A stretch of DNA of 64,000 bases, from contig JACIWQ010000001.1 in NCBI GenBank assembly GCA_014360895.1, forward strand, positions 16,287-80,286, in the 5' to 3' direction. Origin of the DNA: Thermoflexales bacterium. GTDB taxonomy: Bacteria; Chloroflexota; Anaerolineae; B4-G1; DUEL01. Shown piece after piece: positions 5,582-46,673 of the stretch. Numbering within the stretch: the stretch's first letter is position 1; each line of letters opens with the position of its first letter. Under the pieces are notes generated by a model. It saw only the letters and a list, made by a program, of their open reading frames with translations, was not told the origin of the DNA and searched no databases. A program made the position numbers and the translations under genes.

Positions 5582-5977
5582 TTACACCCGACGCTTCTTC
5601 GGCGGCCGGCAACCGTTGTGCGGGATGGGCGTTACATCGGTGATAGAGCGGATTTTCAGCCCCGCCGCCTGCAGGGAGCGGATGGCCGCTTCCCGCCCCG
5701 GGCCCGGCCCCTTGACCAGCACATCCACCTCGGTCACCCCGTTATCCAGGGCGTCTTTGGCCGCGCGCTGGGCCGCCTGACGGGCCGCGAAGGGCGTGCT
5801 CTTGCGCGAACCCTTGAAGCCCACCAGCCCCGCACTCGCCCAGTTGATGACGTTCCCCTGAGGGTCGGTGATGGTGATGATGGTATTGTTGAAACTGGCG
5901 TGAATGTGGGCCACGCCGCGCGGGATCGCGCGGCGCACCCGCTGGGTAACTCTCCGGCGTCTTTGAGCACGAGACAT
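5582..5977 (-). CDS. rpsK: 30S ribosomal protein S11
   Basis: S11 core motif ([18 protein letters not shown]). Confidence 0.95.
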
Positions 5978-5994
5978 AGCTAACTCCGTAAAAA

Positions 5995-6029
5995 CGTGAA
6001 AAGTGAAACGTGAAACGTGAAACGTGAAG
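5995..6029. repeat. Tandem heptamer array (CGTGAAA) x5 in the rpsM-rpsK spacer
   Basis: cgtgaaa agtgaaa cgtgaaa cgtgaaa cgtgaag, preceded by an actccgta motif. Confidence 0.85.
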
Positions 6030-6037
6030 GGTGGGTT

Positions 6038-6427
6038 TTACTTCTTCTTGGCGCCCCGGCGGCGGCCACGGCCAGGAACGGTCTTGCGCGGCCCCCGTTT
6101 GGTGCGCGCGTTGGTCCGGGTGCGCTGACCGCGCACCGGCAGGTTCATCCGGTGGCGCAACCCCCGATAGCACCCGATCTCTATCAGGCGCTTGATATTC
6201 ATCTGGACCTCGCGCCGCAGGTCGCCCTCCACCTTGTACTCGCGGTCAATAATCTCGCGCAGACGGGCCACCTCGGCCTCACTAAGGTCTTTCACCCGCT
6301 TATCCGGGTCCACCCCGGCCTTGCGCAGAATCTGATTGCTCAGGCTGCGCCCGATACCGTAGATATAGGTCAGACCGATCTCCACCCGTTTGTCTCTGGG
6401 CAGGTCTACACCAGCGATACGAGCCAT
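6038..6427 (-). CDS. rpsM: 30S ribosomal protein S13
   Basis: [26 protein letters not shown]... canonical S13. Confidence 0.95.
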
Positions 6428-6463
6428 ACGTCCTCCAACGGAATGCGTAAATACGTGTATTGA

Positions 6464-6577
6464 TTAGCCCTGTCGCTGCTTATGCTTCGGGTTCTCGCAG
6501 ATGACCCGAATCACGCCCTTGCGACGGATGATTTTGCACTTGGGACAGCGCCGTTTCACAGACGGTGAGACTTTCAC
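6464..6577 (-). CDS. rpmJ: 50S ribosomal protein L36 (Zn-ribbon type)
   Basis: Manual translation gives [37 protein letters not shown] with a C-x2-C-x12-C-x4-H motif. GTG start, preceded by an AGGAGG RBS. Too short for the ORF track. Confidence 0.85.
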
Positions 6578-6719
6578 GTTATCCTCCTGGTCTGAATACG
6601 TTCTTCCCCCCACAATTACACTTCATCGGAAATAGGACGCAGATGAACGCGGACGAGCACAGATTTCCCTAAAAGATACGTGCTGCGCCACCTGGCGCTA
6701 TTCCCGATAAAGTCTATTA

Positions 6720-43142: not shown

Positions 43143-43177
43143 ATGAGCAAATGACAGAATGACAGAATGACAGAATG
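43143..43177. repeat. Tandem 8-bp repeat (ATGACAGA) x3-4 in the 5' leader of the GT2 gene
   Basis: atgagcaa atgacaga atgacaga atgacaga, immediately upstream of the GT2 start codon. Confidence 0.85.
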
Positions 43178-43184
43178 GCCGATG

Positions 43185-44150
43185 TCAAAACCGGCGCCGG
43201 ACGATAAAGTCGGCCAGGTCCAGAAGGGCAGTCTTGTATTCGGAGGACGGGAAGGGTCGCAGGGCCTCTTTCGCTTCCCGGATGTAGTTGCGAGCGACCT
43301 GGAGGGAGCGGTCAATGGCCGGGGAGGCTGCGACCGCCTGGACTGCTTCCCGCACCGTCAGGTCGGATGAGCCGGAGGTGAGAATCTGTCGGAGGGCCGG
43401 GTGATCGCCGCTTTGCTCCAGAAAGAGCAAGACGGGTAGCGTGACCAGTCCCTGGCGGAGGTCGCTGCCGACCGGCTTGCCCAGGGTCTGCTCGTCGGCG
43501 ACGAAGTCCAGAATGTCGTCCACGACCTGAAAGGCCAGACCCAGTTGCTCCCCGTAGGTCCGCATTGCGGCGATGGTTTCCTCGGCGGCGTGGGCCAGGA
43601 TGGCTCCCGACTCCGCCGCCAGGGCAATCAACGAGGCGGTTTTGGCGTAGATGCGCTGCTCGTATTCCTGGAAGGTGGGCACTTTCCCGCGCCCGTCAAA
43701 CATCTGGCGGATTTCGCCGTTACAGATGACCATCAGCGTCTCGGCGAACCGCTGCACCAGGCGGACGTTGGCCGTTTGGGCGACCAGATAGGCCGCCCGC
43801 GCGAAGAGGTAGTCGCCCGTCAGGACAGTGGCGGCAGGGGACCAGCGGGCGTTGAGGGTCTCCGCCCCCCGGCGCATCAGGGAGCCGTCAATGAGGTCAT
43901 CGTGGACCAGAGTGGCAGTGTGGAGCATTTCCACACCCGCGGCCGCGAAGAGGGCCACATCCGGGTCCGCCCCGCACAGGCGAGCGGAGAGGAACACCAA
44001 AGCCGGACGAAGCCGTTTACCTCCGCTCCCCAGCAGAAGTTCCACCGCGCCGGTGATCGCCGGATGCTGGTCCGGCGCGGATTCCTGTAACAGACCCTCC
44101 GCTCGCTGAAGGTCGTCCTGGATCGGGTGGAAAAAAGGCAACGATGACAC
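43185..44150 (-). CDS. Polyprenyl diphosphate synthase (trans-IPPS, IspA/IspB-like)
   Basis: Two DDxxD motifs (LVHDDLID, VVDDILD). Confidence 0.88.
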   Translation of the reverse strand: MSSLPFFHPIQDDLQRAEGLLQESAPDQHPAITGAVELLLGSGGKRLRPALVFLSARLCGADPDVALFAAAGVEMLHTATLVHDDLIDGSLMRRGAETLNARWSPAATVLTGDYLFARAAYLVAQTANVRLVQRFAETLMVICNGEIRQMFDGRGKVPTFQEYEQRIYAKTASLIALAAESGAILAHAAEETIAAMRTYGEQLGLAFQVVDDILDFVADEQTLGKPVGSDLRQGLVTLPVLLFLEQSGDHPALRQILTSGSSDLTVREAVQAVAASPAIDRSLQVARNYIREAKEALRPFPSSEYKTALLDLADFIVRRRF

Positions 44151-44232
44151 AGACGGTCTCCGGAATGGGGGATACCATGCGGCGTCCGGCGGGAGGTCCG
44201 CCGTCCGCTGGCATCATTATGCCATTTTCCAA

Positions 44233-44985
44233 CTACTCCGTCAAGTGAGCCCGCTGGCGGTCATACAGCCCGGCTCGTCCATTGCGGCGGATGCGGACGA
44301 CCTCCCAGAACATGTTCCAGGAATCCCGCAGGGGACTGACCCGGCTACCTTCTCCGTAGTACCAGTCAATGGGAACCTCCACGATGCGGTAACCGCGCCG
44401 TCGGGCGATGTAGAGCACTTCCACATCAAACGCCCAACCGTCCAGTATTTGCACGGAGAAGAGGTCGCGCGCCACCTCCCGGCGGAAGCACTTGAAGCCG
44501 CATTGGGTATCCTGGATGCCCGGCACCGCCAGAACGCGCACCACAGTGTTGAAGACGCGCCCCATCAGGTGGCGGTACCCGGGTTCGTTGAACCGGCGCG
44601 CGCCCGGGGCTTCGCGGGAGGCGATAGCGACGTCGTAGTCGGAGAGGGCCGGGGGGAGAAATCGGGACACCTGTTCAATGGGCATCGCCAGGTCGGCATC
44701 GCAGATGAAGAGATACTCTCCCCGCCCCTCCAGCATCCCCTTCCGCACTGCCGCCCCCTTCCCCCGAATGGGCTGGTAGAGCAGGGAGACAATGGGATGT
44801 TCGGCCGCGACCGCCCGGACGACCTCCGCCGTCCGGTCGGTGCTGGCGTTATCCACCACCAGGACCTCCACCGGATACGCCTGCGCCTCGGCGAAGGCGA
44901 CGACCTGCGGGAGGGTGGTTGGCAGGCGATGCTCTTCGTTGTAGGCCGGGATGATGATGGTCAGCAGCGGCAATGGTTCGGCCAT
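44233..44985 (-). CDS. Polyprenol-phosphate hexosyltransferase (Dpm1/Ppm1/GtrB-like GT2, soluble form)
   Basis: IIIPAYNEE...DNASTDRT...DADL...GFK GT2 family 2 motifs. TAATG overlap with the upstream thioredoxin gene. Confidence 0.8.
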   Translation of the reverse strand: MAEPLPLLTIIIPAYNEEHRLPTTLPQVVAFAEAQAYPVEVLVVDNASTDRTAEVVRAVAAEHPIVSLLYQPIRGKGAAVRKGMLEGRGEYLFICDADLAMPIEQVSRFLPPALSDYDVAIASREAPGARRFNEPGYRHLMGRVFNTVVRVLAVPGIQDTQCGFKCFRREVARDLFSVQILDGWAFDVEVLYIARRRGYRIVEVPIDWYYGEGSRVSPLRDSWNMFWEVVRIRRNGRAGLYDRQRAHLTE

Positions 44986-45416
44986 TATGGCTCCTGTGAT
45001 CCAGCGACGGCGGCCCGGATGGCCGCCCGGTCGGGCAGACCGGCCTGGGCATAGACCACCTGTCCCCCCCCGTCAAAGACGATGAAGGTGGGGACGGCGC
45101 TCACGCCGTACTCCCGGGCCAGGGTCAGGCCGGCCTGACTCATCACGTCAATCCGCAGCACCTTCGCGGTTCCGCCCAGTTCCTTCTCTAACCTGTCCAC
45201 GGCAGGTTTGGCCATCAGGCAGGCGCTTCAGGTGTTGGAGAAGAACTCCACCGCGACAGGCCGCCCGCCGCGAATCTCCTGCCGAAAAGCTTCCACAGAG
45301 AGGTCATCGGCGGGAGTCCGCAGGAAGAGCCAGCTCCCCACCAGCAGGCCGAGCACCAATAGAAGCGCCCAGTTCTGCCGGAGCAGGTCGTAGAGCATAT
45401 ACCCGATAGCGTTCAC
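44985..45416 (-). CDS. Membrane-anchored thioredoxin-fold protein with an in-frame TGA at the first Cys of CxxC. Either a selenoprotein (UxxC) or a disrupted gene.
   Basis: Track ORFs 45228..45416 and 44985..45215 are in the same frame, separated only by TGA plus 4 codons (SACL). Joined sequence: ...RPVAVEFFSNT[TGA]SACLMAKP...VPTFIVFDGGGQVV = Trx fold with a cis-Pro. ATGA and TAATG overlaps with the neighbouring genes. Confidence 0.5.
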
Positions 45417-45994
45417 TTTTCTCCTTCCATCAGCCGAAAGATGCCCAGCGCGCGGGTCTCCTCTCGCCGGAGGTGAAACCCCGCCCGTCGGACGCTCCGG
45501 ACCGTCTCCCGGTTCAGGTGACAGACGCCGTTCCAGGCAAACCAGAGGGGATGAAGGCGGTCCGTCAGCCAGGCCCCCAGGCCCCGCCCCCGGGTGTGCT
45601 CCAGGAGGAGCAGACGGCCGCCGGGCCGGAGGACCCGGTAGACCTCTCCCAGGGCCCGCTCCGGCTCGGCGACGGAGCAGAAGACCAGGGAGCCCGTCAC
45701 CGCGTCAAAGGCGCCGTCCCGGAAAGGGAGGCGGTGCACGTCGGCCCGGACGGCCCGGACGCGGGCGCGGGTCGTCCGGCGCAGGGCCCGCCGGAGCATC
45801 GGGGCGCTGAGGTCCAGCGCGATGACAGCCGTCGTCGGGGGATAGAGGGGGAGGTTGACGCCGGTGCCGACGCCCACCTCCAGCACGCGCCCTTCCACCT
45901 GCGGGAAGGCGCGCCGCCGCATCTGCCGCAGAACCGCCATCTCCAGCGGCAGGAGGCCCAGGTCGTATCCGGAGGCCAGCGCGTCAAAGACCAT
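45413..45994 (-). CDS. Class I SAM-dependent methyltransferase
   Basis: VLEVGVGTGVN motif I; UbiE/COQ5-like. Confidence 0.8.
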   Translation of the reverse strand: MVFDALASGYDLGLLPLEMAVLRQMRRRAFPQVEGRVLEVGVGTGVNLPLYPPTTAVIALDLSAPMLRRALRRTTRARVRAVRADVHRLPFRDGAFDAVTGSLVFCSVAEPERALGEVYRVLRPGGRLLLLEHTRGRGLGAWLTDRLHPLWFAWNGVCHLNRETVRSVRRAGFHLRREETRALGIFRLMEGEK

Positions 45995-46008
45995 AGGATG
46001 CAGGAAAT

Positions 46009-46037
46009 GTAGGACAACTGCTCGCAGTTGTCCTACC
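46009..46037. repeat. Perfect 13-bp inverted repeat GTAGGACAACTGC-tcg-GCAGTTGTCCTAC
   Basis: Hairpin between the vapC stop and the methyltransferase start. No U-tract. Confidence 0.6.
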
Positions 46038-46086: not shown

Positions 46087-46452
46087 TTAAACCCTGTATG
46101 GGACCCGAATGCCTTCCCAGTCGGGAGCGAAATCCTTCGTGTTACGGGTGACCAAGACGGCGCTATAGAGTTGGGCTGTAGCCCAGATTATGGCGTCCGG
46201 TAAACGAAGGCGGCGATACTGTCGGCGAATGTCTACTGCTTTCTCAGCCACCGCAAAGTCCACCGGGACGATCTCAAAATAGGTTTGCAGGAAATCGCGC
46301 ACCTCTTCCTCATTCTCTCCAGCGCCGACCAGAGTCTCTATCCACGTAACGAGACTGATTAAAACACGGTCGTATCGGCGATATTCTGCGTCGGCCTCTG
46401 GAAGGCCGTTGAGGGCGTCTATCACGATGTTCGTATCAAACAGAGCGTTCAT
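46087..46452 (-). CDS. vapC: PIN-domain toxin VapC
   Basis: MNALFDTNIVID...D...TRN PIN acidic residues. Confidence 0.8.
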   Translation of the reverse strand: MNALFDTNIVIDALNGLPEADAEYRRYDRVLISLVTWIETLVGAGENEEEVRDFLQTYFEIVPVDFAVAEKAVDIRRQYRRLRLPDAIIWATAQLYSAVLVTRNTKDFAPDWEGIRVPYRV

Positions 46453-46673
46453 TCCTCACGCTCCCATTCCGAGCGAAGTTGTTCCTGAAATTCCAGTGCA
46501 TCTATGCCCCGTCCTTTCCACGAGCCGAAAGCCGGGTGATCCTTCAACGAGCGGCGTGAAGGAACCCGCGCCGATAATTGCCGTCGGAGGAAGAGAATGA
46601 AATCCAGGACCTCGCTCTGTTTCTCCGGCGGCAAGTGTACCACCTCTTTCTGAATCTGCTCCAGCAGGCTCAT
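46449..46673 (-). CDS. VapB-like antitoxin
   Basis: 74-aa small protein overlapping vapC by 4 nt. Confidence 0.6.
   Translation of the reverse strand: MSLLEQIQKEVVHLPPEKQSEVLDFILFLRRQLSARVPSRRSLKDHPAFGSWKGRGIDALEFQEQLRSEWEREE

Follow-up and report, generated by a model that had tools for sequence, protein, structure and literature searches.

The analysed stretch of DNA (the window; 64 kb of the contig JACIWQ010000001.1 from a Thermoflexales bacterium) contains an operon which encodes, in this order, a UbiE-type methyltransferase, a thioredoxin-like protein with a proposed selenocysteine (Sec) residue, a glycosyltransferase of family 2 (GT2), a polyprenyl synthase, another GT2 and a glycosyltransferase of family 4 (GT4). 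The second of these genes, the subject of the present analysis, occupies 45416..44985 of the minus strand as a single reading frame whose sole interruption is a TGA triplet. A GTG start codon opens 62 codons with the last residues ...VEFFSNT, and behind the TGA the frame continues with AGC GCC TGC CTG ATG GCC AAA CCT (S A C L M A K P) up to a TAA at 44987..44985. In GenBank the gene is split into two entries, MBC7225675.1 (62 aa, 'hypothetical protein H5T61_00385') and MBC7225674.1 (76 aa, 'thioredoxin family protein'). We consider, with a probability of roughly 0.9, that the in-frame TGA is a selenocysteine codon and that both entries derive from one genuine selenoprotein gene. The coordinates of the gene, its characteristic elements and its direct neighbours are compiled in Table 1.

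Table 1. Position of the proposed selenoprotein gene, its elements and its direct neighbours in the window.
Feature	Position	Strand	Remarks
Proposed complete selenoprotein gene	44985..45416	-	143 codons including the UGA (Sec) at codon 63, plus TAA; transmembrane-anchored, thioredoxin-like, U-S-A-C active site
GTG start codon	45414..45416	-	Sequence read directly
Predicted transmembrane helix, residues ~16-32, WALLLVLGLLVGSWLFL	45321..45371	-	Preceded by ...LLRQN, followed by RTPADD; family-wide architecture and structure model of a Cys homolog
In-frame UGA, proposed Sec codon 63	45228..45230	-	Aligned to the first (nucleophilic) Cys of CxxC; TGA in 75/80; Cys in P0001 and P0002
TGC, Cys66, resolving Cys of UxxC	45219..45221	-	Invariant across all family members
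SECIS-like hairpin, nt +20..+38 after the UGA	45190..45208	-	Inside the codons for K-P-A-V-D-R-L; RNAalifold, covariation, synonymous-codon constraint
Pro109 of VPTF, conserved cis-proline of the thioredoxin fold	45090..45092	-	Invariant in the family protein alignment; aligned to IPT of thioredoxins
Class I S-adenosylmethionine-dependent methyltransferase (UbiE/Methyltransf_11)	45413..45994	-	Upstream, translationally coupled; commonest conserved neighbour
GT2 glycosyltransferase	44233..44985	-	Downstream, TAATG overlap; linkage conserved only in the Thermoflexales subgroup

The gene is tightly inserted between its neighbours. Its GTG overlaps with the TGA stop codon of the methyltransferase gene (45415..45413) as GTGA, its TAA with the ATG of the GT2 gene as TAATG, and a Shine-Dalgarno sequence, AAGGAG, is found at 45426..45421, 4 nt in front of the GTG. 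An earlier note on this DNA had described the open reading frames (ORFs) 45228..45416 and 44985..45215 as one frame separated by the TGA only, with coordinates that proved to be correct; from the gene overlaps listed there, the TAATG is found as described, whereas the supposed ATGA at the methyltransferase gene is actually the GTGA of a GTG start. A scan of the entire window for further genes split by a TGA revealed 218 sites where open stretches of 40 or more codons on either side are connected by a TGA. Only the TGA of the thioredoxin-like gene is flanked by a coding signature on both sides, with GC contents of 0.80 and 0.86 at the third codon positions (GC3) and of 0.44 and 0.46 at the second codon positions (GC2), and no further split gene was found. 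The sequence of window positions 43151..46037, with the TGA, recurs at 100% identity in an independent Logan assembly (run SRR11866724, L015).

For the analysis of domains and fold the joined 143-residue product was scored with a Cys placed at the TGA. The Pfam domain Thioredoxin (PF00085) matches residues 39-135 and thus spans the TGA (E 7.7e-13, 48.8 bits versus a cutoff of 23.5). In a profile search against PDB, which returned thioredoxins with an E value of 1.6e-13, the segment 'ffsntCsvClmakP' is aligned to 'FWAPWCGPCRMIAP', so that the TGA column corresponds to the first Cys of WCGPC, and the VPTF segment is aligned to the IPT of PDB thioredoxins containing the cis-proline. The AlphaFold2 (AF2) model of an 81%-identical Cys homolog (predicted local distance difference test score, pLDDT, of 83) is composed of a helix 3-32 and a beta-alpha-beta-alpha-beta-beta-alpha core in which the C/U-xx-C motif is positioned at the N-terminus of helix 64-80. 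The best PDB matches reported by Foldseek are all thioredoxins (root mean square deviation ~2 Å, TM-score to the target ~0.8), and the structural neighbours are of the cytoplasmic type. The N-terminal transmembrane anchor and the classical thioredoxin fold claimed in the earlier note agree with the AF2 model and the Foldseek data. Family members share a common layout consisting of a basic stretch ending with [KR]-[EQ]-N-W, one transmembrane helix, the segment L-R-T-P-[GA]-D and a thioredoxin domain of ~100 residues; in the members from Dehalococcoidia and SAR202 there are two transmembrane helices, the last of which is preceded by an Arg-rich loop. The active site is characterized by the family motif SN[TFY]-U-x-x-C-L-x-[AS]-K-P-x-V-D, with VPTF following 33 residues later. 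According to the positive-inside rule the thioredoxin domain probably faces outward, to the extracytoplasmic side, and the charge pattern around the transmembrane helix is clearer at the level of the family than in the window protein.

A protein search with the joined product yielded four matches. P0001 (81% identity) and P0002 (78%) are full-length Cys homologs encoded by single uninterrupted ORFs, with the sequence FFSNT-C-SVC and C63 at the TGA column. P0003 is a fragment of 78 aa, the DNA of which shows the same arrangement of 62 codons, TGA and SAC-L-MAKP as the window, and P0004 carries a W at the Sec column, the underlying codon being TGA. Searches at the DNA level with the family alignment, for which the genome-scan patterns excluded the first Cys, provided 45 loci in species-representative genomes plus 53 in metagenomes. 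The genome loci belong to metagenome-assembled genomes (MAGs) of Thermoflexus, Thermoflexales, Anaerolineae, Dehalococcoidia, SAR202 and two Myxococcota, and the identities are ~30-85%. The codon was read from the DNA of 80 distinct sequences and is TGA in 75, TGC in four and TGT in one of them; five loci missed by the first search pattern contain TGA as well, in the form SPF-TGA-LGC. Counted by species-representative genomes, 41 out of 45 have TGA. Two assertions of the earlier note are strengthened by these data: the location of the TGA at the first Cys of a thioredoxin CxxC motif by the alignment to the Cys homologs as well as by the PDB profile, and Sec recoding rather than decay by the conservation of the TGA in two phyla. 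The ratios of nonsynonymous to synonymous substitution rates (dN/dS) between the window gene and its TGA-bearing relatives amount to 0.12-0.37 upstream of the TGA (with one outlier of 0.78, L026) and to 0.18-0.40 downstream of it, values which speak for purifying selection on both halves. In a neighbour-joining tree the four Cys forms appear as separate tips nested inside Sec clades; therefore, Sec would be ancestral, and Cys would have been substituted at least four times. The comparison of the sequences accordingly presents Sec as the apparently ancestral and, with ~90%, dominant state of the family, which a few lineages seem to have exchanged recently for Cys.

Two peculiarities within the family set may be mentioned. 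The two Myxococcota loci, a Polyangiales MAG (L043, JBKJQC010000985.1) and a Myxococcales MAG (L049, JACRDA010000028.1), the contig of the latter having a GC content of 73%, contain family members with TGA and hairpin which cluster together in the tree; this indicates either a horizontal transfer from Chloroflexota or mis-binning. A metagenome copy (L098, OFRL01012001.1, ~560-700) has an extra in-frame stop in the linker, WWIMRP-stop-PTE compared to WWIMRPAPTE in the near-identical L051, which may be due to a sequencing error or to a decaying copy.

Bacterial selenocysteine insertion sequence (SECIS) elements are described as stem-loops that follow the UGA directly on its 3' side and carry guanosine in their small apical loop (PMC1088965, PMC12013277). 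The earlier note had recognized a candidate hairpin ~20 nt past the UGA, which is indeed present, coincides with the consensus helix of the family and covaries. In the window the strands AACCUG (45208..45203) and CAGGUU (45195..45190) enclose the loop CCGUGGA (45202..45196), and the stem begins 20 nt after the UGA; in most members the loop is GUG. The hairpin was analysed in an alignment of 69 distinct TGA-type sequences from -15 to +81 around the UGA. Because this alignment contains no gaps through the region, the hairpin lies at a constant distance from the UGA. RNAalifold predicts a single consensus helix, nt +20..+25 and +33..+38, identical to AACCUG/CAGGUU. Among the 69 Sec forms the pair 42-52 (window 45204/45194) is UA in 42, CG in 23, GC in two and UG in two cases, and the pair 43-51 is GC in 63, AU in five and GU in one, neither of them being broken in any sequence; the pair 39-55 (GC 38, AU 14, GU 4) is broken in 13. 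Over an 8-bp stem, 92.9% of the cells are paired versus 87.0+-0.5% in shuffled alignments, and 44 double-sided changes are observed versus 13.9+-2.6, each value being reached in none of 500 shuffles. When the partner strand is slid by 1-3 columns as a control, pairing drops to at most 41%.

The stem also leaves its imprint on the coding sequence. Its changes are located at synonymous positions, where Lys AAA/AAG varies together with Leu UUA/CUN and Pro CCU/CCG with Arg AGG/CGG, and Val GUC/Ile AUC covaries with Asp GAC/GAU. Moreover, the position following the conserved Asp is occupied by Arg (AGG) or Gly (GGG) according to which of the synonymous Pro codons, CCU or CCC, it pairs with, such that a constraint from the RNA structure dictates an amino-acid polymorphism. 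The choice of codons in the stem is nearly frozen, with GTC for Val+9 in 43/45, GAC for Asp+11 in 66/72 and the rare AGG for Arg+12 in 44/46 cases. The same-codon fraction reaches 0.85-0.93 in the stem versus 0.24-0.64 at most other positions, and it is also raised, to 0.76-0.82, at the codons flanking the UGA (-1, +1 and +3). The element resembles the SECIS of the E. coli fdhF type, read by SelB, in being an in-ORF stem-loop right 3' of the UGA, at a fixed distance and with G in a small apical loop. It differs by its short stem of 6-9 bp starting 20 nt after the UGA and constitutes a putative SelB target.

Formally, the TGA might represent the remnant of a TGC Cys codon in an ordinary thioredoxin gene, generated by pseudogenization or by a sequencing or assembly error. 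A single substitution would suffice, and the closest full-length database proteins, P0001 and P0002, carry TGC. However, the same triplet recurs in sequences from dozens of independent samples and assemblies and also in the independent assembly of the window sequence, the region downstream of it retains the low dN/dS given above, and Cys is the derived state in the tree; this explanation is effectively refuted. Extremely improbable is likewise the arrangement of the GenBank record, two real separate genes for a membrane peptide of 62 aa and a truncated thioredoxin-like protein of 76 aa starting from the ATG at 45215. Besides the two annotated coding sequences (CDSs) it can be based on an ATG five codons past the TGA, which exists in the window and in 41/74 distinct TGA sequences. 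In the window this ATG is not preceded by a Shine-Dalgarno sequence, as read directly from the sequence, and the Dehalococcoidia and SAR202 members have Ser instead of the Met and their next in-frame start at least 10 codons away. Since ~30% of the distinct TGA sequences offer their next in-frame start codon at a distance of 10 or more codons from the TGA, on the far side of the second Cys, two-gene models fail. Such a split would furthermore divide the CxxC motif and remove both strand beta1 and the active site, and it would leave 12 nt between two 'genes' which are conserved in frame as xxC-L. That the halves are normally separate genes, an outcome which the earlier note had regarded as fatal to its proposal, is at odds with the single uninterrupted ORFs of the Cys homologs.

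Several observations weigh against the assignment as a selenoprotein gene or against parts of it. One set concerns the machinery. In the window no selA, selB, selD or tRNA-Sec was found (ARAGORN and Rfam detected only a tRNA-Pro), ARAGORN found no tRNA-Sec in 60 family loci, and tblastn with an E. coli SelD query gave no match in ~0.94 Mb of family loci. These negatives are uninformative because sel genes usually lie elsewhere in the genome. They would fit a scenario in which the UGA is decoded as Trp, Gly or Cys, by readthrough or reassignment, with no Sec machinery involved, and P0004 was deposited with W at the Sec position. We regard this scenario as very unlikely. The standard code applies, TGA terminating the adjacent methyltransferase gene and, in many loci, the family gene itself; the only alternative residue observed is Cys (TGC/TGT), never TGG; and a covarying hairpin at a fixed distance past the UGA is the signature of SelB-dependent recoding. 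In addition, a recognised selenoprotein gene adjoins the family member in a Chloroflexota MAG (L038, JAMCYS010000123.1). This second in-frame-TGA gene (5930-6583, plus strand, TGA at 6356-6358) is 1.6 kb away, contains the motif FVTPT-U-PYC-P, and its joined product scores 273 bits (cutoff 185) on TIGR02187 (PDO_seleno_TRX), a catalogued selenoprotein family. Anaerolineae carry selB and Sec-type formate dehydrogenases (PMC4959059), and Dehalococcoidia MAGs with 46-49 selenoprotein genes are among the most selenoprotein-rich bacteria known (PMC13326102). The L038 neighbour and the Sec trait in both classes provide indirect support for the use of Sec. A further set of adverse observations concerns the hairpin. 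The folding energy of single sequences is no better than that of shuffles (z -0.26 to -1.3), and in the window the hairpin is present in the centroid structure and absent from the minimum free energy structure; consequently, the case for the hairpin is a comparative one built on covariation. Two Cys forms, L005 and L046, retain the stem, and therefore it is kept in part by coding constraints or recent ancestry. Taken to the extreme, the hairpin would be a mere by-product of the conserved K-P-x-V-D-R-L peptide, in the codons of which its arms sit, and would play no role in recoding. We consider this very improbable in view of the covariation at synonymous positions, the Arg/Gly exchange forced by the pairing, the almost complete restriction of Arg to the rare AGG and of Val to GTC and the fate of the core pairs, which are broken in 0/69 Sec forms and in 2/4 Cys lineages (L009 has a C.A mismatch at a never-broken pair and L050 lacks the stem). 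Finally, the topology is deduced from the positive-inside rule only, and the window protein shows a weak charge asymmetry, with one Lys/Arg before the transmembrane helix and two within 15 residues after it.

Consistent with these data we propose the following scenario for the selenoprotein encoded in the window. UGA codon 63 would be recoded to Sec by the standard bacterial route, in which SelB carrying Sec-tRNA(Sec) might be recruited by the in-ORF hairpin 20-38 nt past the UGA with its G residues in the apical loop. The predicted product of 143 residues would begin with a short basic segment, followed by one transmembrane helix and a thioredoxin domain of the classical type. In the U-S-A-C site, Sec is expected to act as the attacking nucleophile and Cys66 as the resolving residue, and catalysis might proceed via a selenenylsulfide. 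From its outward orientation, postulated on the basis of the positive-inside rule, the protein would be a membrane-tethered extracytoplasmic thiol-disulfide oxidoreductase.

The conservation of neighbouring genes was counted across 85 loci. The methyltransferase is found upstream in 23, the polyprenyl synthase in 14, an AP-endonuclease-2 family gene in 11, the GT2 in eight, a canonical WCGPC trxA immediately upstream in seven and a TrxB-like flavoprotein in five of these loci, and the conserved clusters of neighbouring genes revealed no CcdA/DsbD partner. A WCGPC thioredoxin gene lies directly upstream on the same strand, ~420 nt before the UxxC codon, in the Anaerolineae loci L036, L041, L046, L080-L085, L090, L092 and L093. 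In other Anaerolineae, the proximity of trxA and trxB-like genes hints at an electron supply by the thioredoxin system. The earlier note had speculated about a redox partner for glycosylation substrates or for a Cys-linked modification. This idea finds little support, as the counts for GT2 and polyprenyl synthase are low, these neighbours are conserved only in the Thermoflexales subgroup, and trxA, a trxB-like gene or the endonuclease gene adjoin instead in other lineages. A glycosylation role as an inference for the whole family was rejected, since only close relatives show the linkage with GT2 and polyprenyl synthase; the glycosylation context is Thermoflexales-specific and hence does not define the function of the family. 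Between uvrA and the methyltransferase gene the window contains, at 46087-46673 of the minus strand, a toxin-antitoxin-like pair of genes encoding a PIN-domain (VapC-like) and a DUF2281 protein. Among the syntenic relatives, L009 lacks the pair, uvrA being followed directly by the methyltransferase gene, and L005 keeps the DUF2281 gene only; the pair looks like a small lineage-specific insertion.

The affiliation of the protein to characterized thioredoxin-like families was evaluated by the scores of curated models. The product falls far below the cutoffs of the TrxA/TrxC equivalogs (TIGR01068 53.6 versus 96.8, NF006898 28.9 versus 138 and NF008229 30.5 versus 125 bits), and its active-site motif T-U-S-A-C does not contain WCGPC. 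The same holds true for the DsbE/CcmG/TlpA class (TIGR00385, 17.2 versus 123 bits), with PF08534 appearing solely as a 'faint' precomputed match in P0002, and for TxlA/slr1796 (NF038096, cd02950; 17.6 versus 140 bits). The match to PF13098 is slightly sub-threshold (25.9 versus 27 bits). From the NCBIfam models for thioredoxin-like selenoproteins only TsoB (NF045694) is listed, with 14.9 bits versus a cutoff of 805, and SaoT (NF040730), HUIPC (NF047660), VPGUxxT (NF041383) and PDO_seleno_TRX (TIGR02187) are not listed for the window protein at E<=0.01. No curated NCBIfam model covers the family.

Thioredoxin-type selenoproteins with a UxxC motif are a long-established class (PMC13188914, PMC2398784, PMC1088965), of which the window gene is a member and possibly represents a new subfamily. 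A Sec-thioredoxin (PF00085, UxxC) is listed as experimentally verified in bacteria, with WP_010956703.1 as representative (PMC13188914). The window protein shares with it the PF00085 domain, Sec in place of the first nucleophilic Cys, a hairpin inside the ORF just past the UGA and the existence of Cys orthologs. It is distinguished by the N-terminal membrane anchor, the missing WCGPC and scores below the TrxA cutoffs, and in its family Sec is the majority state and not the exception. In the Global Ocean Sampling (GOS) and Sargasso Sea surveys the UxxC families 'Trx-like 1' and 'Trx-like 3' were found to be abundant in marine samples; they were detected through TGA/Cys pairs and a SECIS with G in the apical loop, and Trx-like 3 exhibits an unusually high Sec:Cys ratio of 212:183 and a weak similarity to cd02950 (TxlA, membrane-anchored) (PMC2398784, PMC1088965). 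Both have the UxxC in a thioredoxin fold in common with the window family. Going by its description, Trx-like 3 resembles the window family further in its high share of Sec and its weak TxlA similarity; the window family, for its part, gives a weak match to the TxlA-like NF038096 and includes SAR202 and ocean members (L052, L094, L095 and L100). In contrast to the GOS families, the window family is not restricted to seawater and occurs mostly in Chloroflexota of hot springs, sediments and reactors. The likeness to TxlA/slr1796 is confined to the architecture of a transmembrane anchor and a thioredoxin domain. TlpA, ResA and DsbE similarly combine a signal-anchor with a thioredoxin-fold domain probably outside the membrane, whereas the window protein contains a minimal thioredoxin domain of ~100 residues without the TlpA/ResA insertions. 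A literature search on selenoproteins of Thermoflexus, SAR202 or Anaerolineae retrieved nothing specific.

Notable traits of the family are the dominance of Sec, the attachment to the membrane by an anchor and a SECIS of exceptionally clear covariation which constrains the protein sequence. It is conceivable, albeit in our estimation rather doubtful, that these traits delineate a distinct and hitherto uncatalogued family of membrane-anchored, outward-facing Sec-thioredoxins, which would go back to an ancestor of much of Chloroflexota and occur in Myxococcota MAGs as well, with Sec as the ancestral state, a SECIS that dictates protein sequence, genes that are systematically split or mistranslated in public records, and no NCBIfam model of its own. 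A second kind of mis-annotation besides the split in GenBank is encountered at L004 (ENA ERZ23495067, scaffold_538926), where the gene at 195-677 was deposited as P0004, its Sec codon translated as Trp; evidently the genes of the contig were called with a code table in which TGA means Trp.

The current understanding of Sec recoding and of thioredoxin chemistry remains unchanged by these findings. The GenBank record needs a single CDS with a transl_except at the TGA, and a similar mis-annotation probably affects most family members in Chloroflexota MAGs. As a Sec-dominant family with a compact SECIS, it could serve as a marker of the Sec trait in Chloroflexota and could be used to train or test bacterial selenoprotein predictors. 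For the organisms themselves, the data suggest that in the thermophilic and microaerophilic Thermoflexales an oxidoreductase based on a selenol is positioned at the outside of the membrane.

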